DNA of 64,000 nt from the sequence record MK310184, one strand, 5' to 3'. The stretch's first letter is position 1; the number at the start of each line of letters is the position of its first letter. The notes below the pieces were generated by a model. It was not told the origin of the DNA, made no database searches, and saw only the letters and a list, made by a program, of their open reading frames with translations. Origin of the DNA: Phage NC-G. The translations under genes were made by a program, and so were the position numbers. Shown in pieces: positions 3,564 to 63,550 of the stretch.

Positions 3564-3612
3564 ATCAATTTCCTCAGTAGATTAATGTTTTGTTATCCAG
3601 TCAACGAGAACC

Positions 3613-3641
3613 ATTATAACATGATTCTCGAGGTTGTAAAC
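3613..3641 (-). promoter_or_regulatory. early sigma70-type promoter upstream of ndd
   Basis: -35 GTTTAC (3636-3641), 17-bp spacer, -10 TATAAT (3613-3618), upstream A-tract. Confidence 0.65.
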
Positions 3642-3985
3642 TATTTTTGTAGCTGTTCTAAAATAAATCCGCTCGTATAAAAAGAAGCATTATAAACCTT
3701 GTTCAGCGGGTTCAAAGCACGTCCGTAAGTATCACGTAATTCTTTGATAACGTTTTCATAACTCACGTAGTAAGCACTATGATAACCTGGGTCCATACTC
3801 ATACGAAATTTAATGAACCGATAAAAGCCTGTTTCCGGGTCTTGAACGAAAACGAAATCAGCACTCGTCATAATCTTTGAATGTACGCCGGGAATCATAC
3901 TTTGATTGAATGCCACCGATGCATCCTGAAGGCTGAGTTGTTTAAAGAACATTACCTTAGCATTACCAAAAAATACTTTAGACAT
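3641..3985 (-). CDS. hypothetical protein (114 aa)
   Basis: track ORF, co-oriented and tightly packed; no motif recognised. Confidence 0.55.
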   Translation of the reverse strand: MSKVFFGNAKVMFFKQLSLQDASVAFNQSMIPGVHSKIMTSADFVFVQDPETGFYRFIKFRMSMDPGYHSAYYVSYENVIKELRDTYGRALNPLNKVYNASFYTSGFILEQLQK

Positions 3986-4345: not shown

Positions 4346-4371
4346 AATCATCTCCATTAGTTGATAGGTCT

Positions 4372-4400
4372 ATAGTATCATGTCTAATGGAGATGTAAAC
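4372..4400 (-). promoter_or_regulatory. early promoter with RBS-complementary spacer
   Basis: -35 GTTTAC 4395-4400, 17-bp spacer, -10 TACTAT 4372-4377; inverted repeat 4351-4360/4384-4393. Confidence 0.6.
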
Positions 4401-14750: not shown

Positions 14751-14776
14751 TTTGTTCTCCTCATGTTGATAGGGCT

Positions 14777-14805
14777 ATAGTATCATGTCATGAGGAGAAG
14801 TAAAC
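14777..14805 (-). promoter_or_regulatory. early promoter with RBS-complementary spacer
   Basis: -35 GTTTAC 14800-14805, 17-bp spacer, -10 TACTAT 14777-14782; inverted repeat ctcctcatg/catgaggag. Confidence 0.6.
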
Positions 14806-18121: not shown

Positions 18122-18147
18122 CTTACGGACGATTAGTTGATAGGTCT

Positions 18148-18176
18148 ATAGTATCATGTTGCTTAATAAAGTAAAC
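18148..18176 (-). promoter_or_regulatory. early promoter
   Basis: -35 GTTTAC 18171-18176, 17-bp spacer, -10 TACTAT 18148-18153, conserved agacctatcaac box. Confidence 0.6.
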
Positions 18177-21441: not shown

Positions 21442-21693
21442 TTATGCTTCGGGTCCTGGAGGAACCGGTGCAGGTTCTGGGGTAAACATAGCTTCATTTG
21501 CTGTTGCCCAATCATCTGCGGTGTCAACCACAGTATCATAGGCTGGTTCTTCAGACGGGAAAGTCTGATAGTGCGCACCTGAGATTCGATGAGCATTAGA
21601 ATAAACTTCAAATGCAACAGAAACCTCGGTACCTTCTACTGTACCACCTTCTACTTCATGGTCGAACGTTTTGATATTTACATATCCACCCAT
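21442..21693 (-). CDS. soc: small outer capsid protein Soc
   Basis: 83 aa; GYVNIKTF...VSVAF..YS..H.ISGAHYQTFPSE matches recalled T4 Soc. Confidence 0.85.
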   Translation of the reverse strand: MGGYVNIKTFDHEVEGGTVEGTEVSVAFEVYSNAHRISGAHYQTFPSEEPAYDTVVDTADDWATANEAMFTPEPAPVPPGPEA

Positions 21694-21721: not shown

Positions 21722-21729
21722 TATTTATA
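21722..21729 (-). promoter_or_regulatory. late promoter (TATAAATA) for soc
   Basis: minus-strand TATAAATA 28 nt upstream of soc ATG. Confidence 0.5.
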
Positions 21730-22417: not shown

Positions 22418-22534
22418 ACGTTTTAGTATGGAACCTGGTAATAGTTCCATTAGCGGCAACTCAAGCTATTATATTACTACAAGTAGAGTTGCAGCATATA
22501 CTCTCAATAATCAACGCAATTGGAGTTAATTTGC

Positions 22535-22732
22535 ATGCTTAAGTTACCTGCACTACTTATGGCCATTAAAGGCAATAAAAAGAAGACTATCCTGGCCTCT
22601 ATTATAGCAGGAGGTATTGTTTCTTGGAACTTTGTTTTTGCGCCGTTGTTAGTTGCCCATGGGCTCGCTGTTCCTGTAATCCCTTTAGATACAGTAGTAG
22701 ATTTAGCCTTTGCATTTGTGGGGTTAGTATAA
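22535..22732 (+). CDS. small membrane protein (65 aa) on opposite strand
   Basis: GGAG RBS; two predicted TM helices; ends at GNRA hairpin terminator; no overlap with minus genes. Confidence 0.4.
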   Translation: MLKLPALLMAIKGNKKKTILASIIAGGIVSWNFVFAPLLVAHGLAVPVIPLDTVVDLAFAFVGLV

Positions 22733-22735
22733 GAA

Positions 22736-22760
22736 TAGGGAGGAAACTCCCTATATTTTA
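22736..22760 (+). terminator. hairpin terminator between convergent genes
   Basis: UAGGGAG-GAAA-CUCCCUA (22736-22753) followed by UAUUUUA on plus strand; also at gene 61 stop. Confidence 0.5.
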
Positions 22761-23779
22761 GAATATTTACTTAAACGCATTTTTGCCATTAAACCTTGTG
22801 CGATATTCTCTTTCATATAAGAAAGGATATCGTTTATATTGGCTTTATCTTTCATAACCATATCATTTATATCTTTAGAAGGCCATGGGGCCTTGTCCCA
22901 GAACAGAACCCTTTCGCCTGCATCAACTAATCGTTGCATACGCTTAATTGTGTCAGGATGGCGGGGTTCATTGTCCATTACCCAGGCACGAGTTTCTTTA
23001 CATGGAACTATAGCCAAGTCCAACGACCCACCAGTAATTGCTATTGCATTCGGTACGAATAATGAATCGATAGGACCTTCCATTACCCACACCAATTGAC
23101 GTTCATCCACAGTATCCATTCCATATATTTTTGTGGCTTGGTCATGAGCTTTTATTGTAATATATTTTTGTGGAGCATCTTTACGTAAGGCTCGACCCTG
23201 AAAACTTTCTATTTGTTTATCCTTATTGAAAATAGGAATAACCAAACGTGGTTCAGGCATTTCTTTGGAATAGGTCCCTGGATTAACCGAGTTCACCAAT
23301 GCGGGCCATTCTTTAGTAAACCACAGCCGATTCCATTTGTTTTCAGGAATGCAACGTAGTGTCACATATTTGATAATAGGATGGTCCTTCGGCATTCTAT
23401 CTAATCGTTCACAGAAATTAAGCTTTTCGATGACAGGCATCTTAGCTTTAATTTTTTCAGATATCTCCACCTTAGGTGCAGCTTGTCTCCCGAACGATTG
23501 CTCTTTATGTTTCTCAAGAATATATTCGCGATATAAATCAGGCTCGTATTCGTATAGATACTTCTTAATTCCTGCTGAATAGTCACAGTTAAAACAGTGT
23601 AGCATTACAGAGCCGTCGTTAGCAGGATAGGCCCAAAAACGAGCTTTGTTCTCATCTTTTAGGGAGTCGCCACATACACGACAACGACAGTTTAATTTAA
23701 AATCACTACCAGTTACTTGTCTGAATTTAGGTTGGTAATTCAAGGCACGTACAGCAAATTCTCTATCGACATATGACAT
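22751..23779 (-). CDS. 61: DNA primase gp61
   Basis: 342 aa; N-terminal Cys4 zinc ribbon (CRCRVCGD...CFNCDY) and Toprim-type region; resembles recalled T4 gp61. Confidence 0.88.
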   Translation of the reverse strand: MSYVDREFAVRALNYQPKFRQVTGSDFKLNCRCRVCGDSLKDENKARFWAYPANDGSVMLHCFNCDYSAGIKKYLYEYEPDLYREYILEKHKEQSFGRQAAPKVEISEKIKAKMPVIEKLNFCERLDRMPKDHPIIKYVTLRCIPENKWNRLWFTKEWPALVNSVNPGTYSKEMPEPRLVIPIFNKDKQIESFQGRALRKDAPQKYITIKAHDQATKIYGMDTVDERQLVWVMEGPIDSLFVPNAIAITGGSLDLAIVPCKETRAWVMDNEPRHPDTIKRMQRLVDAGERVLFWDKAPWPSKDINDMVMKDKANINDILSYMKENIAQGLMAKMRLSKYSKI

Positions 23780-23817
23780 TATTTTTCCTTGGGCTCTAAA
23801 TTAATAGAGCCATTATA

Positions 23818-23979
23818 TCATTCGTTTTCGGATTTTTCTTTACGCTTTTTAGATGGGATTTGTTCAGGCCCTTTGTTGACGACTGCACCTGAGGTAGTTC
23901 CGGAGGCAATATTAGATGGGTTTCCACCTGCATCGCCTGCGACCATATCTTCGTTCATAACTTCTTTAAAAGATTTCAT
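23818..23979 (-). CDS. hypothetical protein (53 aa) with late promoter
   Basis: ATG 23979 with AGGAG RBS, TATAAATA 14 nt upstream; below track size cut-off. Confidence 0.4.
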   Translation of the reverse strand: MKSFKEVMNEDMVAGDAGGNPSNIASGTTSGAVVNKGPEQIPSKKRKEKSENE

Positions 23980-23992
23980 AGGCTCCTGGCCT

Positions 23993-24000
23993 TATTTATA
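23993..24000 (-). promoter_or_regulatory. late promoter (TATAAATA)
   Basis: exact TATAAATA on minus strand upstream of the 53-aa ORF. Confidence 0.45.
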
Positions 24001-24187
24001 TTACGAAAATAGCTTTGTCACCGTTGGCGTCAGTGACTTCGTACGTATCTTCGTGGTAAAGTGGGATAATCCAGGTCACACCATCATCAGCAATAACATG
24101 GATAGCTTCTTGGTCTTTTGATACGATTTCATATTCTTCGAATAATTCGAATACAGAAATCTTAGAGCCCGTACACATTGCAGTCAT
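23996..24187 (-). CDS. hypothetical protein (63 aa)
   Basis: track ORF, co-oriented and tightly packed. Confidence 0.45.
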   Translation of the reverse strand: MTAMCTGSKISVFELFEEYEIVSKDQEAIHVIADDGVTWIIPLYHEDTYEVTDANGDKAIFVI

Positions 24188-24188
24188 A

Positions 24189-24629
24189 TTAACCTCGGTT
24201 CATAAAGGCATTAAAAATCTGGTCGTCAATTGAATAAACTGGAGCTTCCAGAATTTTCAACAGGCTATTTTTGATATACTTGCTAGGGATATCCATATTA
24301 ACGCAGTCGTTCAATTCGTTGTCAGGGAGGATATCTTTAAATTCGAATCCTTCAAATTCAACCTTGTCGGGAAAACCATCAGCGAAAAAATAAACCAATT
24401 GGTGCATTGTATTGCGCGAAAATAATTTAGACTTAACTGCAATAAGTTCTTGCCATTGGTTTAATTCTTTGTTAAGAAGTTTATGGGCAAATACAATCCT
24501 ATCATCGCTATCAACAATAAAATAACCCAGGTATTTATGGTCGTCGCTCCAAAACATCCTGTATGCTTGTGCATTTGGATTTTTACAACGAAGTTTTTTG
24601 ATAACCAAATTTCTGTTAATCTTATTCAC
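24189..24629 (-). CDS. hypothetical protein (146 aa)
   Basis: track ORF, co-oriented and tightly packed. Confidence 0.55.
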   Translation of the reverse strand: MNKINRNLVIKKLRCKNPNAQAYRMFWSDDHKYLGYFIVDSDDRIVFAHKLLNKELNQWQELIAVKSKLFSRNTMHQLVYFFADGFPDKVEFEGFEFKDILPDNELNDCVNMDIPSKYIKNSLLKILEAPVYSIDDQIFNAFMNRG

Positions 24630-24915
24630 CTGTTACCTCTTTAACGATATTTTTGTTATCGAAATTGGCATCACAGTACAGAACATAGTTATACTGCATA
24701 ACACCGCTAGAAGCCAATTGGTCAGATACTTCTTTAACCATATCAGGACGGTCGCGTTTAGTGATGTTCATGATATCAGCATAAATCTGATGTTCAACTG
24801 ATTCTTGGTCTGCAGTCATTGACCATTCACAAAGGTCTTTATCCAGTCCGGCTGTAACTGGAGCTGTACCACATGATGCTACTATAAGGATTGCTGCGAT
24901 TAATAACTTTTTCAT
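24622..24915 (-). CDS. periplasmic lipoprotein (97 aa), possibly spackle (Sp)-like
   Basis: track ORF trimmed to ATG 24915 (GAGGAG RBS); signal peptide with lipobox VASC; Sp assignment is recollection only. Confidence 0.5.
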   Translation of the reverse strand: MKKLLIAAILIVASCGTAPVTAGLDKDLCEWSMTADQESVEHQIYADIMNITKRDRPDMVKEVSDQLASSGVMQYNYVLYCDANFDNKNIVKEVTGE

Positions 24916-24943
24916 TTTTAACTCCTCGTTAGTTGATAGGTCT

Positions 24944-24974
24944 ATAGTATCATTTACCATAGACCGTTGTAAAC
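24944..24974 (-). promoter_or_regulatory. possible early promoter (long spacer)
   Basis: -35 GTTTAC 24969-24974, extended -10 TGaTACTAT 24944-24949, but 19-bp spacer. Confidence 0.4.
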
Positions 24975-24976
24975 AC

Positions 24977-25273
24977 TTATTTTACTTTAGCGTAATCTAA
25001 AGTTACTAACTGTGATTCCATTATCAGACGACGTTGACGACGGAGAACCTCACCACCAACATAAGCACGAAAAGCTTTTTTGCACTGACGAATCTGGCGC
25101 TTAGTAGGACGAACAGTAAATTCGTAGAACTCTACAAAATCCATTTCGCCTTTAGTTTCCTGAGAAAGGACAAGTTCCCAGCGACTGTTAATACGATCTG
25201 CATAAATCTTATGCTTACCGAAAGACCTGTCCCAAAAGCCACTTTTAACAGGCTTCATAATTTGAATATTCAT
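24977..25273 (-). CDS. hypothetical protein (98 aa)
   Basis: track ORF trimmed to ATG 25273, 1 nt after upstream stop. Confidence 0.5.
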   Translation of the reverse strand: MNIQIMKPVKSGFWDRSFGKHKIYADRINSRWELVLSQETKGEMDFVEFYEFTVRPTKRQIRQCKKAFRAYVGGEVLRRQRRLIMESQLVTLDYAKVK

Positions 25274-25274
25274 T

Positions 25275-25415
25275 TTATTCCTCGTCTTCATGTTTATGAG
25301 CAATTTCTTCGAATTCACTGTCACAGTCTAAACAAGTCGCATTATCATACGCGTCAAAAACGGCTTCGTCTTCATAGACACTACAGCCGCACACTACACA
25401 TTCTACTTCTTCCAT
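25275..25415 (-). CDS. zinc-ribbon protein (46 aa)
   Basis: CVVCGC...CLDC motif; ATG abuts upstream stop; below track size cut-off. Confidence 0.4.
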   Translation of the reverse strand: MEEVECVVCGCSVYEDEAVFDAYDNATCLDCDSEFEEIAHKHEDEE

Positions 25416-25619
25416 TTAGATTTCCTCAATACGGGCATCATATTCAAAAACTTTATTGTCATTAACAAAGGCTTTCACCAGCGCATTATTCACTTCTGCA
25501 TACTGCACTGTAACCCATTCAATCATATTTTGGTCACTAACATCCAGCGCAGTTTCTTTGGTAAACATATTACCGTTTTCAAACCAACCAATAAATACTA
25601 CGATCTCTAATTTAAACAT
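25416..25619 (-). CDS. hypothetical protein (67 aa)
   Basis: track ORF, co-oriented and tightly packed. Confidence 0.5.
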   Translation of the reverse strand: MFKLEIVVFIGWFENGNMFTKETALDVSDQNMIEWVTVQYAEVNNALVKAFVNDNKVFEYDARIEEI

Positions 25620-25937
25620 TTAGATTTCCTCGCAGAAGGCCCATTCAGCATGATAAACCGTAGCGCCTTTAGTATCATTTAAACAAACCACATCCACCGG
25701 AGCAATTACGCGATAAAGACGAGGTTCTCCTCCCACTGAACGAGCAGCTCGTCCAGCATAAATCTTAGCCAAACCGATGTCCTCAGTAAAGAATACACGA
25801 TTCAGGTTTTTCTTACGACCAGTTTCAGACAGAACTCCTGTTTCCTCAGGAGGACAAAGCATATTACCAATATTAGCAACACTACAACTTCCGTGATAAT
25901 ACACTTTATATTCTGCTTTACAGTCGATGGTTTTCAT
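25620..25937 (-). CDS. hypothetical protein (105 aa)
   Basis: track ORF trimmed from TTG to ATG 25937 with GGAGAA RBS; first gene after promoter. Confidence 0.55.
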   Translation of the reverse strand: MKTIDCKAEYKVYYHGSCSVANIGNMLCPPEETGVLSETGRKKNLNRVFFTEDIGLAKIYAGRAARSVGGEPRLYRVIAPVDVVCLNDTKGATVYHAEWAFCEEI

Positions 25938-25961
25938 TTTGTTCTCCAAGTTGATAGGTCT

Positions 25962-25990
25962 ATAGTATCATGCCTACAGGAGAAGTAAAC
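25962..25990 (-). promoter_or_regulatory. early promoter
   Basis: -35 GTTTAC 25985-25990, 17-bp spacer, -10 TACTAT 25962-25967; inverted repeat ttctcc/ggagaa. Confidence 0.6.
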
Positions 25991-25997
25991 CCTTAAA

Positions 25998-26022
25998 ACA
26001 AAAAAAGGAGCCGAAGCTCCTT
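25998..26022 (-). terminator. intrinsic terminator after gene 41
   Basis: AAGGAGC-UUCG-GCUCCUU (26005-26022) followed by U7; overlaps gene 41 stop. Confidence 0.65.
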
Positions 26023-27460
26023 AAAATTTTATAGATGCTGCCAAATCGTCCAAATCGCTTCTATTAACACGCGACTGGCGATTGACTTCGGCTTGGCGAT
26101 TCATTTCACCTGTAGCCTCACGAACGGTGTTCACAGGGCCTTGGTTAGAATCGTCTTCAACTTCATACCAACGCTGGTTTCCTTTCTTAACACCAATCTT
26201 AAATTTGTTGTAGTAGCTCTTATCACCATAACGAGATTTAAGCTGCTTAATCATCTGCATACCCATCTGGGCAAACTCTTCTGTCTCGACCACACCTAAC
26301 ATGAAGTCTGCAGTATGTGCAATACCAAAAGATTCAGCGATATCAGCCATATCGATTTCGGCAGCAACGTTTGCACCACGAGTAGTCTGGGCCGCCGTCC
26401 ACAACAATAATTTCTTCTCTACTGCAAGGCCACGTAGTTCTTCGGCAACCATCTTAATCAATCCGTAACTGTTTTCAGAGAAAACTTTCGTACGGGATGA
26501 AGCACAGATAGCCAAGTAGTCGACGATAACGACCTGTGGAACAAAGTTTTGTTTGAGCTTGTATTCGTTTAATAATGCACGGAATGTATCGGCATTAGCA
26601 CCACCGGTAGGATACTGTTTAATCTTTAAACGACCTAAAGTAGCAGTTGAACGCCACTTATCCATCTTAGCTTTATATTCAGGCCATGAGACGTGACCAT
26701 CATCGATATCATCCAGCGATACATCCAGAAGGTTAGCATCGATACGCTTAGCACATACTTCTTCTGCCATCTCCATGGAGATATAAAGAACATCGTAACC
26801 GGATTGAAGGTAATCAGCAGCCAATGAACATAGTCCAAGAGACTTACCTACGTTTGTTCCTGCCAACAATACGTTTTCAGTACCAAACTCAGCGCCACCC
26901 TTAGTAATCTTATTCAGAATATTAAGACGGAATGGAACCTTACGTGCTTTATCAGAATAACTTTTGAATCGTTCTTCATAGTCATCCATCCAGTCATGGC
27001 CTAATTCAGAATCGAAACAAATCGATAATGCATCACGCATGATATCCGGAATAGCACCGATACCTGGGAGTTTTCTATTTTGTTGCTCAACCGGAAGGTC
27101 GGCATTAGTTTGAATTTCAATAATTTTTGAAGTGGCATTATACATCGCTGCCTTCTGAACATATTTCTCTGTCTCTTTAACCAACCATTCTTGGTCTTCA
27201 GGGCCTGCATTCAGAGAATTTAAAAGCTCTTTAGCTCCTTGGTGTTCGACTTCTGAAAGGGTGCTGTTATCTAATGCAATACTCAAAGCATTTTTAGAAG
27301 GCACCGCATTATATTCATTGACATGTTTTTTGATTTCTTTGAAAAGGGTCTTTGCCGGGCCCTGGTCAAAATAAGAATCATTCATATAAGGCCAGACCTT
27401 AGTGAAATAATCACTATTGCCTAGCAGTTGAGCCAAAATAGTTTCTACCACTTCCACCAC
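26021..27460 (-). CDS. 41: replicative DNA helicase (DnaB-like) gp41
   Basis: 479 aa; Walker A GTNVGKS and DnaB-family C-terminal domain; synteny with 61/uvsX. Confidence 0.92.
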   Translation of the reverse strand: MVEVVETILAQLLGNSDYFTKVWPYMNDSYFDQGPAKTLFKEIKKHVNEYNAVPSKNALSIALDNSTLSEVEHQGAKELLNSLNAGPEDQEWLVKETEKYVQKAAMYNATSKIIEIQTNADLPVEQQNRKLPGIGAIPDIMRDALSICFDSELGHDWMDDYEERFKSYSDKARKVPFRLNILNKITKGGAEFGTENVLLAGTNVGKSLGLCSLAADYLQSGYDVLYISMEMAEEVCAKRIDANLLDVSLDDIDDGHVSWPEYKAKMDKWRSTATLGRLKIKQYPTGGANADTFRALLNEYKLKQNFVPQVVIVDYLAICASSRTKVFSENSYGLIKMVAEELRGLAVEKKLLLWTAAQTTRGANVAAEIDMADIAESFGIAHTADFMLGVVETEEFAQMGMQMIKQLKSRYGDKSYYNKFKIGVKKGNQRWYEVEDDSNQGPVNTVREATGEMNRQAEVNRQSRVNRSDLDDLAASIKF

Positions 27461-27774
27461 CTCTTAGATTTAATTTTATCCAGTTCTTCTTGTATTTGCA
27501 TTGTAACACATTTTTCTACATGAAGCGCTAGCTCTTCTTTTCGGTCTTCGGAAGGCGTTCCGAAATCAACCGACACTTTTCCATCTTTCTCAATAACAAT
27601 ATTCATCACATAAACGATGTGAGCAGTGCCATCGGGTAATGTAAGCATAATTTCCTGCTTAACAGAACCCATTGACTTACGGATTATATCTAACGATTTC
27701 TCATAATAACGAGGGTCACTAGGACCCTCTTCAGTATCTTTAACAAAATTATCTAAATCAGATAAATCAGTCAT
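27445..27774 (-). CDS. hypothetical protein at gene 40 position
   Basis: 109-aa ORF overlapping uvsX stop and gene 41 start, as gene 40 does in T4. Confidence 0.55.
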   Translation of the reverse strand: MTDLSDLDNFVKDTEEGPSDPRYYEKSLDIIRKSMGSVKQEIMLTLPDGTAHIVYVMNIVIEKDGKVSVDFGTPSEDRKEELALHVEKCVTMQIQEELDKIKSKRWWKW

Positions 27775-28939
27775 CTAAATCCATCTCTTCTAAATCGTTT
27801 TCGATATCAGCAGCGCTTTGAGTGTCACCACCCAATTTAACTGCAACGTTTTTAGAGACACGAGAGTTAATAAGGTCGTTCACCGCATCATCGACTTCTT
27901 TAATAGAATTAATTGCACCGAGCTTATACTTATTCTCGATTGCTTCACGGAATGGAGCATGTTTAAACAGCGGTCCCCAGAACTCAACACAATCGGTAGC
28001 TTTAGCACGCCATGATTTTTCTTCTTGAACCATTTCACCTGTGGTTTCGTCAAGGAATGCACGATTATACCAACCAGCTTTAGGTTTCACGACAAAGCCA
28101 ATATCAGTAGCCATTTCGAGCAGACCACTAAATGGGTCAATACCACCTTCAAAGTTCACAGTAATTGGGAACGTTGATTTCTCTTTAACAGTACGAGATT
28201 TTTCGGCCTTCAGGGTGAAGTCATAACCAGTGAGCTCGGTTCCATCTTTAACCTGACGTTTGGAGATAAAGAACACGGTAGAAGCAGAGTACAGAATACC
28301 AGTACCACCACCCATAATCTCTTTAGGATACATTCCACCAATTTCCATAGCCGTATGGTTAATTGCTACACAAGGAATATCCTTGATAGTCAGATAAGGT
28401 GTTACGATACGGAACAGAGATTTCAAAGACTTAGCACGAGTCATATCACCTACAACTTTCTCGTTCAAAGCATCTTCGGTTTCTTTCTTAGAAGCAGTGT
28501 TACCGATGGAGTCGATAAAGATAATAACCTTTTCGCCACGAGTAATTTCTTCTAATTGGTTGGTCATGTCAACCTTCAGTTGTTCGACCGACTGGATTGG
28601 CGTATGAACCACACGTTCCAGGTCAACACCCATTGAACGGAAATAAGATTCTGAAGCACCAAACTCAGAGTCATAGAACAAACAAATTGCGTCTGGATAT
28701 TTCTTCATATATGCCGCAACCATAGTTAATCCAAACAACGTTTTAAAGTGTTTAGACGGCGCAGCAAAGATTGTCAAACCTGATTGTAAGCCTGCATTCA
28801 ATGCACCACCCAATGCAATATTAAGCATAGGAATACGAGTAGGAACTTCGTCACGACCATTAAACAATTTAGATTTGGTCAGGTCGGCAGTCATTTTAGA
28901 AGTAGAAGCTTTAATCAAACGGGATTTTAAATCAGACAT
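27767..28939 (-). CDS. uvsX: UvsX recombinase (RecA-like)
   Basis: 390 aa; RecA-fold Walker A (AAPSKHFKT) and long collinear resemblance to recalled T4 UvsX. Confidence 0.92.
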   Translation of the reverse strand: MSDLKSRLIKASTSKMTADLTKSKLFNGRDEVPTRIPMLNIALGGALNAGLQSGLTIFAAPSKHFKTLFGLTMVAAYMKKYPDAICLFYDSEFGASESYFRSMGVDLERVVHTPIQSVEQLKVDMTNQLEEITRGEKVIIFIDSIGNTASKKETEDALNEKVVGDMTRAKSLKSLFRIVTPYLTIKDIPCVAINHTAMEIGGMYPKEIMGGGTGILYSASTVFFISKRQVKDGTELTGYDFTLKAEKSRTVKEKSTFPITVNFEGGIDPFSGLLEMATDIGFVVKPKAGWYNRAFLDETTGEMVQEEKSWRAKATDCVEFWGPLFKHAPFREAIENKYKLGAINSIKEVDDAVNDLINSRVSKNVAVKLGGDTQSAADIENDLEEMDLDD

Positions 28940-34316: not shown

Positions 34317-37028
34317 TTAAAAGTCGAACATGTCAAATAATGTTGCTTTTTTCTCGTAGTCGATTTTAGCAGACTCGGTAAAACCGGTCAGAGGTTTGAT
34401 AAAGGTCTTTTGGAACAGTACGTTGTAGTCCATCCAACGGAGGACTTGGTCACGAATCTGAATCGGGAGTTCAATACCTGACGGCCATGCCATACAAGCT
34501 TCACCGAACGGGTTGCCTTCTTTAAGTGGCAGTACATATACCTTCTCACCATCAACGATACGAGGCATAGTCAAATCACCAGCAGAAGCACGCATGTAAG
34601 CTAAGCAACCTTTGATGTGGTACGGACATTTAGAACCAGGGAAACCACCTTCATTATATTTCTCAATGTTGTTAGCACTGGATACTGCAGCAATGCTTAC
34701 ATAGTCTAATTCGTTAAATTCCTTATTAAACTGTTTGAAATATTCTTGCAAAGAGGCCTCGCCTTCTTGAAGCATACGACGGATGCATTCTTTCAGTGCT
34801 TTCTGAACCGCTTTAGGTGTACTTGATTTCTGAGTTTCGAGACCCATGATTTTCAAGTGTGGTTCGGCATAACGAGTACCTTCCATGTCCCAAACGTTCA
34901 GTGCATAACGTTTCTTGCCTGTCCAGAATCCACCAAGACCTTTAGAACCAAGTGGAGGACCAGCGATAGCTTCTCGGTCCATGAACATCAAGTGCTGTTT
35001 ATTGTTCATGTATTCACACATCTCACGGAAGCCTGCATCAATAGCAGGTTCCATACGTTCACGTGCAAATTTATCTAAGAAGTCAACCCAGTGGTTAGTA
35101 TCACGGAATTTGTCTTCGCCTACTTTATTGATGATTGCGTCAGCCTTAACATAAATGGAGTCGGTATCACCATAGAGCACGAACTTCTGGTTTTCGGTCT
35201 TACATACGCTATTCAGATATTCGTTAACCTTACGTTCAATCCATTGGAGGGCCATTTGACCAAACAATGTGATTGCAGTTGCGTTCCTGAGGTCATAGTA
35301 ACGGAACCATACGTTACCAAGTGCACCATAAAGGGAGTTGATAAGCAACTTACGGTTAATCTGAGCAGTCATACCTGCGACTTCAGTACGTTCGGCTTTG
35401 AACAACATTTCTTTTAAAGAAGCTTCTGACAATTTTTTAATCTGGGCTTTGACTTCGTCAGAGAAGTCGAAACGATAATCAACATCCAGTGGACTATCAT
35501 CAGACGGATTAGGATTTTCTAATGCTTCTTTAATTAACTCGCCATTACGTTGAGCTGCAAGCATATAACCTTTATGTTCTTTACGTTGTAAGAACACCTT
35601 CGTGATTTCTGTAGGAATAACACCATCACGGTCTTTATAGTACATCATGCCGTTAGGAGAGCAACTGTAGGTGTCGCTAGGACGCGGAGCAGTTCCGGCA
35701 ATATATTCATGTATAGGTGCGTTGGCGAATGTGCCTGCGATGGTCTCTGGGCTTATATTCACTTGTCGAATGATACTCGGGTACAGAGATGTAAGGTCGA
35801 AACTCATTACATATTTGTACGCGTTAGGAATCGGTTCCTTAACGAAAGCACCTGGATAAGGTTGAACCGCGTGCGATTTGGCCTGAGGAATAACTTTACC
35901 CTGTTCTTTAAGGCTATTAAAGATAATAGCGTCCCAAGTCTTAATTGGGCTGAACACCGACTGAATCTGCATCTTGGCATAGTAACCCATGTCCAGACTA
36001 AGAAGAATGAACTGGCGCTTCATATCAATCTGCACAACACGATATACGTCGATAATGTTATAGGAAATATATCGTTGGTGGTTCGTCTCACGTAACTTGG
36101 AGATAGGACCATCATATTTCAACTTACCTACTTTCAATTCATATTCAGAAACATAATCCAGAGAATAAGAAGGCTGGTTGGTAAAGCTGAATTTTTTATA
36201 AAGGTCGATATAGTCCAGAACAGAAATACCGAACAGTGTAATAATTTCACGAGCACCGTACATGTTCTCGATAACTTTAACACGAGTCTTACGATGCGGG
36301 CTTAATCGCTTAGCAGTGTTCTCACCAAACAGATTTTTCAGACGGTTATAAACGTATGGCACGTCAAATGATTCAACGTTCCAGCCGGTCAAAATCACAG
36401 GAGTTTTCTGTTGCCAGAAATTCAGATACTCGAGCATCATTTCTTCTTCGGAATTAAACGGAAGATAAACGATTTTGTCAATGATTTCCTGTGGAACTTC
36501 GTCACCACCTTCGTCTTGGAGTTTCTCAGCGATTTTAATCGACCACTCTTCGACCGTACCATAAGGTGAAACTAAAAGGTCAAATACATAGAATTTATCA
36601 TCAATCGAGTCGTAGTGAGTAATGGCATCGATAGGATGTTTAGCCTGGGCAGGTTCAGGGAATCCATCAGGAGATGTTACCTCGATGTCGAAGTTAGCAA
36701 TACGAATCTTGGAAGAATCATACTTGATTTCTTTACGATAGGTATCAGACAAATAGGCTAATTTATAGTCGTCCATACCAAGGGCTTCAAGTCCCATATC
36801 GTCCATGCGCTTCATCCATTGAGAAGCATCACGCATTGAATCGAATTCTTTCTTAACACAACCCTTACCATAGATGTCAATGTATTTTACGGCTTGCTCT
36901 GGGTTAGCATGCATAAACATTGTAGGCTTGTAAGGAACTTCACGACTACGTTCGTTACCATTTTTATCGATGTAACGTTCGAGAATATTATCACCGATTT
37001 GTTCGACTGTCAAATAGAATTCTTGCAT
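34317..37028 (-). CDS. 43: DNA polymerase gp43 (family B)
   Basis: track ORF trimmed to ATG 37028 (AAAGGA RBS); 903 aa; exo and pol motifs (FDIE, YGDTDS); collinear with recalled RB69/T4 gp43. Confidence 0.95.
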   Translation of the reverse strand: MQEFYLTVEQIGDNILERYIDKNGNERSREVPYKPTMFMHANPEQAVKYIDIYGKGCVKKEFDSMRDASQWMKRMDDMGLEALGMDDYKLAYLSDTYRKEIKYDSSKIRIANFDIEVTSPDGFPEPAQAKHPIDAITHYDSIDDKFYVFDLLVSPYGTVEEWSIKIAEKLQDEGGDEVPQEIIDKIVYLPFNSEEEMMLEYLNFWQQKTPVILTGWNVESFDVPYVYNRLKNLFGENTAKRLSPHRKTRVKVIENMYGAREIITLFGISVLDYIDLYKKFSFTNQPSYSLDYVSEYELKVGKLKYDGPISKLRETNHQRYISYNIIDVYRVVQIDMKRQFILLSLDMGYYAKMQIQSVFSPIKTWDAIIFNSLKEQGKVIPQAKSHAVQPYPGAFVKEPIPNAYKYVMSFDLTSLYPSIIRQVNISPETIAGTFANAPIHEYIAGTAPRPSDTYSCSPNGMMYYKDRDGVIPTEITKVFLQRKEHKGYMLAAQRNGELIKEALENPNPSDDSPLDVDYRFDFSDEVKAQIKKLSEASLKEMLFKAERTEVAGMTAQINRKLLINSLYGALGNVWFRYYDLRNATAITLFGQMALQWIERKVNEYLNSVCKTENQKFVLYGDTDSIYVKADAIINKVGEDKFRDTNHWVDFLDKFARERMEPAIDAGFREMCEYMNNKQHLMFMDREAIAGPPLGSKGLGGFWTGKKRYALNVWDMEGTRYAEPHLKIMGLETQKSSTPKAVQKALKECIRRMLQEGEASLQEYFKQFNKEFNELDYVSIAAVSSANNIEKYNEGGFPGSKCPYHIKGCLAYMRASAGDLTMPRIVDGEKVYVLPLKEGNPFGEACMAWPSGIELPIQIRDQVLRWMDYNVLFQKTFIKPLTGFTESAKIDYEKKATLFDMFDF

Positions 37029-54383: not shown

Positions 54384-54409
54384 GATAACCTCCAGTAGTT
54401 GATAGGTCT

Positions 54410-54438
54410 ATAGTATCATTTCTACTGGAGATGTAAAC
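54410..54438 (-). promoter_or_regulatory. early promoter with RBS-complementary spacer
   Basis: -35 GTTTAC 54433-54438, 17-bp spacer, -10 TACTAT 54410-54415; inverted repeat ctccagta/tactggag. Confidence 0.6.
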
Positions 54439-58853: not shown

Positions 58854-58882
58854 AATATTCTCCTCATTAGTTGATAGGTCTA

Positions 58883-58911
58883 TAGTATCATGTTCCTAGA
58901 GGATGTAAACA
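58883..58911 (-). promoter_or_regulatory. early promoter
   Basis: -35 GTTTAC 58906-58911, 17-bp spacer, -10 TACTAT 58883-58888, conserved agacctatcaac box. Confidence 0.6.
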
Positions 58912-58953: not shown

Positions 58954-59337
58954 TTATTCTAACGTCAGCAAATACTTAGTCTGGTAAAAGACACCAGTGA
59001 TATCGTCCAAAGTCGACTGGATGGCCTTAGGAAGGGTGTCATAGATTTTATCAGATGCTTTAAGAAGCTCGTCAAGAAAATCTACCGGGTCCTTAGGCAA
59101 GTCTGAAGCAGACGGTAATGATGCTTTATATTCTTTGCCACTGAATCCAAGATATTGCTCACTAAATTGGTCCAGCGGTCCTTGAACTTCTACGTAATAG
59201 AAGTCATACGCTTTGTGTCTTGCATAGCTTTTGGTTTCTAAATGGGCTGACTTAAAATAGGCTAAAGAAACCAATAGCCAACCAATATAAGAATCCACTT
59301 CAGACCCTCGACCGGGTACGAAATCATTGAACTTCAT
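58954..59337 (-). CDS. hypothetical protein (127 aa)
   Basis: track ORF. Confidence 0.5.
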   Translation of the reverse strand: MKFNDFVPGRGSEVDSYIGWLLVSLAYFKSAHLETKSYARHKAYDFYYVEVQGPLDQFSEQYLGFSGKEYKASLPSASDLPKDPVDFLDELLKASDKIYDTLPKAIQSTLDDITGVFYQTKYLLTLE

Positions 59338-59617
59338 CTTCCACCTTCATTAGTTTTGCATAACGCTCTCCGATGGCACGACCTTCAATTGAGCATGCTT
59401 CTATAGTCCGACAACTTGAGTTCTTCCAAGAAGCCGTAACATAGGCCCAATAGTCTTCGGAGGCCATTACGCTGGGTCTACTCATTTGCGCATAAACAGG
59501 CATCGCACTACTAGCAAATGCATCCATCAATTTATCGTTGGTATCATTTGCTAGTGAAACTGTAGGGCTTAAACATCCCGCCATAAGGATACAAGCCGCT
59601 GTACGGAAAATATCCAT
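59324..59617 (-). CDS. rI: lysis inhibition regulator rI
   Basis: 97 aa; N-terminal signal anchor; C-terminal region resembles recalled T4 rI; synteny beside tk. Confidence 0.75.
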   Translation of the reverse strand: MDIFRTAACILMAGCLSPTVSLANDTNDKLMDAFASSAMPVYAQMSRPSVMASEDYWAYVTASWKNSSCRTIEACSIEGRAIGERYAKLMKVEDEVQ

Positions 59618-59709
59618 ACAAAAGTCCTTTGTTGTTTTATACTATTTGCCTTTCGGCCTTAACCGATAGCGATTACCAAAAGCTAAAGCTCTACGGTTAG
59701 TATTATTAT

Positions 59710-59988
59710 TTATAGCTTTTTAAGCTTACGACAATAAGAATAGAACACGTCGTTAAAATTATGCTCAACCCAATTCCTCTGTATAGGCGAGGTAATGGAA
59801 AGCATATAATGGGCTTTAATTAAATTCATCCCATTTTTATTAGGGCATTCTTTATTATTAGCATTATACGTCGCTGCTACAACCTCTATCTCTCTTTTGT
59901 AAGCCGTATCATCCATGATAGGCAAAAGAACAATATAAGAAATAGCCACAGCTACCGCTAGAATTAAAATCTTTGAATTTAGGTCCAT
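59710..59988 (-). CDS. membrane-anchored hypothetical protein (92 aa)
   Basis: track ORF; N-terminal TM helix. Confidence 0.5.
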   Translation of the reverse strand: MDLNSKILILAVAVAISYIVLLPIMDDTAYKREIEVVAATYNANNKECPNKNGMNLIKAHYMLSITSPIQRNWVEHNFNDVFYSYCRKLKKL

Positions 59989-63494: not shown

Positions 63495-63521
63495 TTTGTT
63501 TCTCCTGTAGTTGATAGGTTT

Positions 63522-63550
63522 ATAGTATCACTTCTACAGGAGATGTAAAC
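63522..63550 (-). promoter_or_regulatory. early promoter for regB with RBS-complementary spacer
   Basis: -35 GTTTAC 63545-63550, 17-bp spacer, -10 TACTAT 63522-63527; inverted repeat ctcctgtag/ctacaggag. Confidence 0.6.

Follow-up and report, generated by a model that had tools for sequence, protein, structure and literature searches.

The locus between genes 41 and 61

We analysed a 64,000-nucleotide stretch of Phage NC-G (sequence record MK310184; hereafter the window) and describe the genes located between those for the replicative helicase (gene 41) and the primase (gene 61). The 2.24 kb between the two are occupied by eight tightly packed open reading frames (ORFs; 23818-25937), which all lie on the minus strand. 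Listed from the gene 41 side, they are ORF A, which encodes a protein with a predicted minimal ADP-ribosyltransferase (ART) fold, dmd (ORF B), the zinc-ribbon-like ORF C, the TifA-family ORF D, sp (ORF E), ORF F, which occupies the slot of adfA, ORF G, a homologue of RB69 ORF033c, and gene 61.1 (ORF H). The original prediction, made from the letters of the sequence without database searches, had correctly placed and counted these eight ORFs. Matches to PHROGs were obtained for all eight (each E <= 4e-30). Thus, these are conserved genes and not chance ORFs.

Gene 41, the upstream flank (26021-27460, minus strand), encodes a 479-aa protein with 66% identity to T4 gp41, and is labelled gp41 in the annotations of IME281 and JS98. 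Gene 61, the downstream flank (22751-23779, minus strand), encodes a 342-aa protein with 64-66% identity to gp61 of T4 and RB69, and is labelled gp61 in the relatives. Both lie outside the block. The wider neighbourhood is entirely on the minus strand and comprises uvsX (27767-28939), gene 40, gene 41, the eight ORFs, gene 61 and the dCTPase gene 56. The block and its flanks share 96.9% identity with Dhakavirus IME281 and 92% with JS98, and are common to 167 phage records. By sequence comparison, the window phage is a Dhakavirus (JS98-like).

The gene order in T4 is 41-dmd-61.4-sp-61.2-61.1-61, and that in RB69 is 41-041c-040c-dmd-61.4-imm.1-imm-sp-61.2-033c-032c-61.1-61. The position, the strand and the order of dmd, 61.4 (tifA), sp, the 61.2 slot and 61.1 in the window phage all match T4, the genes are small and tightly packed, and an early promoter lies upstream of dmd. 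We therefore consider it very likely that the block is the ancestral, syntenic hyperplastic region between 41 and 61 of T4-type phages, and represents the Dhakavirus version of T4 61.1-61.5. The original prediction described the block as an insert, a reading that is ruled out by the synteny, given that T4 and RB69 carry the same block. Compared with the T4 region, the window phage has three additional genes: ORF A before dmd, the 46-aa zinc-ribbon ORF between dmd and tifA, and the ORF033c-like gene before 61.1. Furthermore, the 208-aa AdfA of T4 is replaced by a 146-aa protein that shares its tail, and the block is 2.24 kb in length, as opposed to about 1.65 kb in T4.

The T4-like region has been published as an "anti-TA (toxin-antitoxin) island", in which tifA is 61.4, dmd is 61.5 and adfA is 61.2 (Srikant, Guegler & Laub, 2022, PMC9391042). 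The block was predicted to hold superinfection-exclusion or anti-defence factors, and its Spackle, Dmd, TifA-family and AdfA-slot genes agree with that expectation and with the published island. The records of IME281 and JS98 already label genes of the block as spackle, Dmd, gp61.4 and gp61.1. For T4-like phages, the block is thus already known, annotated and described in the literature, and because of this annotation and of the published island concept it adds nothing new as a whole. Its remaining value is as a pointer to ORF A and ORF F, both of which can be tested directly using cloned genes and existing panels of defence systems.

Genes with characterized T4 orthologues

The functions of Spackle, Dmd and TifA-type proteins are established for the T4 orthologues and are carried over to the window phage by homology. 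ORF E (24622-24915, minus strand; 97 aa) is sp (61.3) on the evidence of profile and pairwise alignments. It matches the Spackle family PF25676 over its full length (E=2.5e-42; 143.8 bits versus a cut-off of 27; residues 1-96 of 96), and is 69% identical to T4 Sp over all 97 residues and 73% identical to RB69 Sp. In the alignment, VTA/GLDKDLC pairs with AMA/GYDKDLC of T4 (the slash marks the cleavage site), so that the A22/G23 cleavage context is kept. A22, C29 and C81 are invariant among five Sp homologues, down to 47% identity. The likeness to T4 Spackle thus extends over the full length of the protein, the cleavage context and the two cysteines (Cys29 and Cys81), and includes an upstream promoter of its own; no structural difference was found. 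In T4, Spackle forms a one-to-one complex with the tail spike protein gp5 by binding to its lysozyme domain, which it inhibits; the result is superinfection exclusion (PMC7677548, PMC7650644). By homology, the protein of the window phage would be exported to the periplasm, where it would inhibit the gp5 tail lysozyme of superinfecting phages and so confer superinfection exclusion.

The same 97-aa protein had been predicted to be a periplasmic lipoprotein that may be spackle-like. The resemblance to Spackle was borne out, but not the lipoprotein assignment. A lipobox-like V-A-S-C15 is present (the T4 counterpart is LASC). For T4 gp61.3 that had been released from the periplasm, sequencing of the N-terminus placed the cleavage after residue 22, and the T4 protein is soluble and periplasmic (PMC7650644); the lipoprotein label is for this reason not supported. 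Within residues 1-15 of Sp (24873-24915), S14-C15 is invariant in T4, RB69 and two homologues from Klebsiella phages (47-49% identity), which is odd for an ordinary signal peptide.

ORF B (25416-25619, minus strand; 67 aa) is dmd (61.5), as judged from its match to PF17587 (E=3.6e-20; 72.5 bits versus a cut-off of 27), 58% identity to T4 Dmd and its syntenic position downstream of the gene 41 region. Dmd is an antitoxin-like inhibitor of the RnlA and LsoA endoribonuclease toxins (PMC9391042), and the protein encoded here would neutralise RNase toxins of this type.

ORF D (24977-25273, minus strand; 98 aa) belongs, by profile match, to the TifA/gp61.4 family (DUF7279; PF23945, E=1.4e-16; 60.6 bits versus a cut-off of 24.5) and shares 38% identity with T4 TifA. 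It keeps the Pro-Thr (PT) cap and the basic C-terminal helix, in that VRPTKRQIRQCKKAFR aligns with VRPTKRQIRQCKRYFR of T4. The protein would act as an RNA-binding inhibitor of ToxN-type RNases.

Four observations weigh against this functional reading of the block. First, ORF D is 80% identical to the VR7 homologue that was assayed by Guegler et al., and neither this homologue nor JS98 gp61.4 nor a 73-aa paralogue from vB_EcoM_005 neutralised any ToxN or TenpN in the panel (PMC10853763). Second, every functional statement about the block is made by homology. Third, ORF F scores below the Pfam AdfA cut-off and, beyond the tail, resembles AdfA weakly (see below). Fourth, ORFs A, C and G and gene 61.1 have no experimentally known role.

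Given the position between helicase and primase, the block could alternatively encode accessory proteins for replication, i.e., housekeeping functions. It is embedded in the uvsX-40-41-61 replication cluster and is predicted to be co-transcribed with gene 61. However, Sp, Dmd, TifA and AdfA are non-replicative in T4 (PMC9391042, PMC7677548), gene content is variable even within the genus, and profile scans of the block proteins gave no matches to replication families. We therefore give this alternative almost no weight, and prefer the assignment of the block to anti-defence and superinfection exclusion. Likewise, the two findings that would have spoken against the original prediction, a lipoprotein candidate with no similarity to Sp and a conserved housekeeping block, were not made: the protein concerned is the close relative of T4 Sp described above. 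PADLOC and NCBIfam scans of the eight proteins returned nothing useful.

The remaining small genes of the block have the following characteristics. ORF C (25275-25415, minus strand; phrog_13952, 3.7e-30) encodes an acidic protein of 46 aa with a CxxC-18-CxxC pattern. The 57 phage records that contain it belong without exception to JS98-like or VR7-like phages, and in T4 and RB69 the corresponding place holds no gene. A 46-aa zinc-ribbon protein had been predicted here; the ORF and its paired cysteines are present, and the matches to zinc-ribbon models are below threshold. ORF G (23996-24187, minus strand; 63 aa; phrog_3249, 2.6e-34) is 71% identical to RB69 ORF033c. Gene 61.1 (23818-23979, minus strand; phrog_1823, 5.1e-32) encodes a conserved small protein of 53 aa with 81% identity to T4 gp61.1 over 42 aa.

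A small protein with a predicted ADP-ribosyltransferase fold

ORF A (25620-25937, minus strand; phrog_2110, 1.5e-60) encodes a protein of 105 aa that we assign to a minimal ART fold within the Arr/Tpt1 clade. In T4, gene 41 is followed directly by dmd. The protein is 89% identical to ORF040c of RB69, versus 66% for the flanking primase in the same phage pair, and the ratio of non-synonymous to synonymous substitution rates (dN/dS) is 0.12. Homologues with 63-75% identity are present in at least 609 phage records, from phages of Escherichia, Klebsiella, Acinetobacter, Aeromonas and other hosts, in varied genomic contexts. ORF A is thus widespread and under strong purifying selection, and it has no assigned role.

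The AlphaFold2 (AF2) model of ORF A has a predicted local distance difference test (pLDDT) value of 84.6, and a test for membership of the ART superfamily found the protein to have the ART fold. On its own, ORF A scores 15.1 bits against Pfam Arr-ms (PF12120; cut-off 25), and a profile of its close family gave no match among PDB sequences. A broadened family profile retrieved the Arr-ms structure 2HW2 (E=0.003), in an alignment in which H15, F49 and E38-x-G-R41 of ORF A correspond to H19, Y49 and EAGR of Arr, respectively. An exhaustive search identified 161 distant homologues, many of which are domains of giant "polyvalent" phage proteins. In these proteins, domains found beside the ORF A-type domain include ART-PolyVal, NUDIX, 2H-phosphoesterase/Acb1, portal, GNAT, Toprim and CHAP. 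Pfam Arr-ms is matched by 31 of 46 multidomain homologues (E <= 1e-3), several of them with more than 25 bits.

Invariant or near-invariant positions in the family are H15, G16, [ST]17, P29, E38, R41, T51, Y60, A61 and G69-G70. Of the residues expected to be catalytic, H15 is invariant, and the aromatic residue at position 49 (F or Y) and Y60 are conserved. These two aromatic positions are eleven residues apart, the same spacing as that of Y54 and Y65 in diphtheria toxin and of Y896 and Y907 in PARP1. The family alignment contains no conserved acidic residue at the position of Arr D84. In comparison with the rifampin ADP-ribosyltransferase Arr (PF12120), which together with the NAD+ lobe of Tpt1/KptA is its nearest known counterpart, ORF A is distinguished by its small size (only 105 aa) and by the lack of a conserved equivalent of D84. 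Unlike the RNA 2'-phosphotransferase Tpt1/KptA, it lacks the RNA-binding lobe that carries the catalytic Arg-His-Arg. Together with its relatives from T4-like phages and those within giant polyvalent proteins of phages, ORF A represents a family of its own.

ORF A is probably an active, NAD+-using transferase, a reading that we hold with somewhat better than even confidence. The main rival is that the protein is a catalytically dead ART fold that acts by binding alone, as a decoy or inhibitor; this is possible, and in our estimation has roughly one chance in three. Three points argue against a dead protein. The signature of the NAD+ site (H15-G-[ST], the aromatic residue at 49, Y60, and the E38-x-G-R41 that is shared with Arr-ms) is kept across the whole family, including the domains of polyvalent proteins. 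The low dN/dS, together with the sequence identity retained across phages of Escherichia, Acinetobacter and Aeromonas, would be unusual for a fast-evolving binder. Finally, Tpt1 and Arr function without a catalytic Glu.

As an active enzyme, ORF A would use NAD+ to modify a conserved target. By analogy, candidate targets would be a phosphorylated RNA or DNA end (as for Tpt1) or a host protein (as for AcrF11). If this is correct, T4-like phages would have in ORF A a new activity for counter-defence or host takeover. Literature searches found no paper on the function of the T4-like Arr-like gene, and in a survey of NAD+ and ADP-ribose (ADPr), the only phages mentioned as having Arr-family genes are those of actinobacteria and Sinorhizobium (PMC9503650). 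In Salmonella phage SHP1, the ORF A homologue is labelled as a clamp loader subunit of DNA polymerase, which is very likely a mis-annotation.

A protein in the adfA slot that shares the AdfA tail

ORF F (24189-24629, minus strand; phrog_8539, 8.6e-92) encodes a protein of 146 aa in the adfA (61.2) slot, and its GTG start codon overlaps the stop codon of sp. The gene was found in 85 phage records, and these are exclusively JS98-like and VR7-like. In the AF2 model, residues 1-95 form a beta-rich domain (pLDDT 85-90), which is followed by a disordered linker and the terminal helix SIDDQIFNAFMNRG. Fold searches with ORF F were uninformative. AdfA (T4 gp61.2, PF23813) is an anti-DarT1 factor that binds DarT1 (PMC11257639).

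By BLASTP, the C-terminal SIDDQIFNAFMNRG of ORF F is identical to T4 AdfA at 14 of 14 positions and to RB69 AdfA at 13 of 14. At the DNA level, the tails of ORF F and T4 adfA differ at six sites, all synonymous. The identity of the peptide in spite of these changes indicates selection on the peptide itself. In a family-to-family comparison using hhalign, ORF F residues 25-146 align with AdfA residues 119-208 (97.5% probability, E=7e-12). A scan of viral contigs for the tail identified three protein bodies that carry it: AdfA (208-216 aa), ORF F (146 aa) and a family of 118-119 aa. A hairpin motif, Y-[VL]-G-x-[FI]-[IV]-V-[KD]-x-[ND]-x-I, occurs in the same register in all three. In this alignment AdfA seems to hold the motif twice, and to look like two copies of the single domain of ORF F.

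One metagenomic T4-like contig, IMGVR_UViG_3300010279_000005 (3565-3955), encodes a 210-aa AdfA and a 119-aa protein in tandem, both ending in SIDDQIFNAFMN[KR]G. The tandem arrangement of AdfA and a 119-aa gene with a common tail points to duplication and divergence within a tail-sharing family, and ORF F suggests that AdfA is part of this wider set of proteins.

ORF F thus resembles AdfA in its slot directly after sp, in the identical 14-residue tail and in the beta-hairpin motif of its body. It differs in length, only the tail passes the sequence tests, and the specificity position His/Arg164 of AdfA is not confidently alignable (the region aligns ambiguously, with either H77 or Q78 of ORF F). 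Two results count against a relationship with AdfA. The Pfam AdfA model scores ORF F at 16.3 bits versus a cut-off of 27, and matches only residues 132-146 (E=0.0064); by the curated threshold, ORF F is outside the AdfA family. When the tail is removed, the hhalign comparison drops to E values of 0.004-0.009 and a probability below 10%. The similarity of the bodies beyond the tail is consistent in register, which is suggestive, not proof.

Weighing these alignments, we favour, with moderate confidence, the reading of ORF F as a short, diverged relative of AdfA. Alternatively, ORF F may be unrelated to AdfA and may have captured the 3' end of adfA by recombination, in which case the tail would mark a junction with no common function. 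We regard this as the less probable explanation and somewhat doubtful, given that the synonymous differences indicate selection on the peptide and not a recent DNA junction, that three bodies bear the tail (two of them in tandem on one metagenomic contig), that the hairpin motif is in the same register in all of them, and that ORF F and adfA occupy the same slot, flanked by sp and the gene that follows. As a relative of AdfA, ORF F would probably neutralise some toxin through binding, by analogy with AdfA and DarT1.

A combined view of ORFs A and F is more tentative. In this scenario, ORF A would be an active, unusually small, stand-alone NAD+ transferase that acts on a conserved target, and the adfA slot would hold toxin inhibitors with interchangeable bodies whose common tail docks onto one partner. 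We consider it unlikely that both parts hold together. The tail sequence QIFNAFMNRG loosely resembles the C-terminus of gp43 (34317-34346), which ends in KKATLFDMFDF. That the AdfA/ORF F tail docks on the sliding clamp in the manner of the gp43 C-terminus is pure speculation.

Promoters, terminator and predicted operons

An intrinsic terminator was identified after gene 41 (25995-26022, minus strand) using a terminator scan. It consists of a 7-bp hairpin (AAGGAGC-UUCG-GCUCCUU) that is followed by a U tract, and the folded RNA has an energy of -11.1 kcal/mol (z = -2.1). Two early promoters were identified on the minus strand. The first (25962-25990) consists of GTTTAC (25985-25990), a spacer of 17 nt and TACTAT with an upstream TG (25962-25967). 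The second, found by a promoter scan (24944-24974), consists of GTTTAC (24969-24974), a spacer of 19 nt and TACTAT with an upstream TG (24944-24949). Both promoters had been placed correctly in the original prediction, which also listed a terminator. From the sequence, the first promoter, which lies past the gene 41 terminator, would transcribe ORF A, dmd, the zinc-ribbon ORF and the tifA-like gene. The second would transcribe sp, ORF F, ORF G and 61.1, and continue into gene 61.

Nine near-identical early-promoter cassettes were found in the window, all on the minus strand (733-753, 4360-4380, 14765-14785, 18136-18156, 24932-24952, 25950-25970, 54398-54418, 58870-58890 and 63510-63530). They have in common a 21-mer for which no chance matches are expected. 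The layout is an invariant GTTTAC, a spacer of 17 nt (19 nt in the sp copy), TG-n-TACTAT, a conserved leader AGACCTATCAAC, a GGAG Shine-Dalgarno sequence and ATG.

Repeated cassettes of this kind are known from T4-like phages as promoter-early stem-loop (PeSL) cassettes (Arbiol et al., 2010, PMC2839356; Comeau et al., 2014, PMC4122927), and the consensus in T4 and PST is TTTACW-N17-TAYWAT (PMC4122927). The promoter at 25962-25990 fits this consensus, is preceded by a hairpin and a U tract, and belongs to the set of nine repeats. As in PeSL cassettes, stem-loop terminator and early promoter lie in succession, and repeated copies occur beside variable genes. Two differences were observed: in the window phage, about 20 nt of the transcribed leader are conserved as well (AGACCTATCAAC...GGAG), and the sp copy has a spacer that is longer by 2 nt and no obvious stem-loop ahead of it. 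The nine PeSL-like cassettes probably double as promoters and recombination sites.

Gene turnover and exchange between genera

Genera differ in which genes the region holds, and these differences would result from recombination, both at microhomologies and at the repeated promoter cassettes. IME281, JS98, AnYang and vB_EcoM_005 carry an additional 73-aa DUF7279 (TifA-like) gene (E=9.5e-19) between ORFs F and G, a gene that is absent from the window phage. The breakpoint is at a shared ATATG (24187-24190 in the window; the IME281 segment is 1963-2184). The 73-aa paralogue is the "tifA vB_EcoM_005" that was inactive on the ToxN panel (PMC10853763). In comparison with RB69, synonymous divergence (dS) is about 0.7 for ORF A and sp, versus about 2.4 (saturated) for primase 61. 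The lower values for ORF A and sp suggest that these accessory genes were exchanged between Mosigvirus and Dhakavirus more recently than the core genes diverged. The extra DUF7279 gene and the contrast in dS fit a turnover of the locus that is driven by recombination (PMC9391042, PMC2839356).

Some of these features could also be expected if the block were a recently acquired foreign insert, i.e., a mobile cassette specific to this phage. Gene content differs among genera, the G+C content is 0.35-0.40 in the block versus 0.41-0.45 in gene 41, the dS values relative to RB69 are lower for ORF A and sp than for the flanking core genes, and ORF A is found in other genomic contexts in phages of Aeromonas, Klebsiella and Acinetobacter. 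On the other hand, T4, RB69 and the JS98 group share a syntenic backbone (dmd, 61.4, sp, the 61.2 slot and 61.1), and Pfam and PHROGs matches revealed no integrase, transposase or homing endonuclease in the block. Moreover, it is single genes alone (ORFs A, C and G, and the extra TifA paralogue) that come and go, as would be expected of a hyperplastic region shuffled by PeSL cassettes (PMC2839356, PMC4122927). A foreign origin of the block is thus very improbable, and we retain the interpretation of an ancestral region in which individual genes are replaced.

In vB_EcoM_005, a homing endonuclease gene adjoins the block on the gene 61 side. In the window, an ORF located between genes 56 and 61 but on the strand opposite to them (22520-22732, plus strand) codes for a predicted membrane protein of 70 aa; it is kept in T4 (66 aa), RB69 (ORF029w) and IME281, and carries no family assignment.

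A late-promoter motif upstream of gene 61.1

The late-promoter motif TATAAATA occurs at 23993-24000 (minus strand), where it shares nucleotides with the stop codon of ORF G; the ATG of 61.1 follows 13 nt downstream. The motif is under-represented in the window, with 3 copies versus 6.7 expected. IME281 also has the copy near 61.1, which is missing from the equivalent spot in T4 and RB69. It is plausibly functional as a late promoter, because another copy of the same sequence (21722-21729, minus strand) precedes the late gene soc (21442-21693) by about 30 nt. The gap of 13 nt to the ATG is a tight geometry, and the leader would be very short. The original prediction had the 53-aa ORF driven by this promoter; the motif is indeed in place, and for transcription of the gene from it the motif itself is the evidence. 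We also considered a hairpin at the ribosome-binding site of 61.1 that would couple translation to the late promoter, as in T4 gene e, and rejected it, as the fold is at the level of shuffled sequences (z = -0.25). The third copy of the motif in the window (59707-59714, minus strand) overlaps the stop codon of a 92-aa ORF (59710-59988) and is located about 90 nt upstream of a 97-aa ORF (59324-59617).

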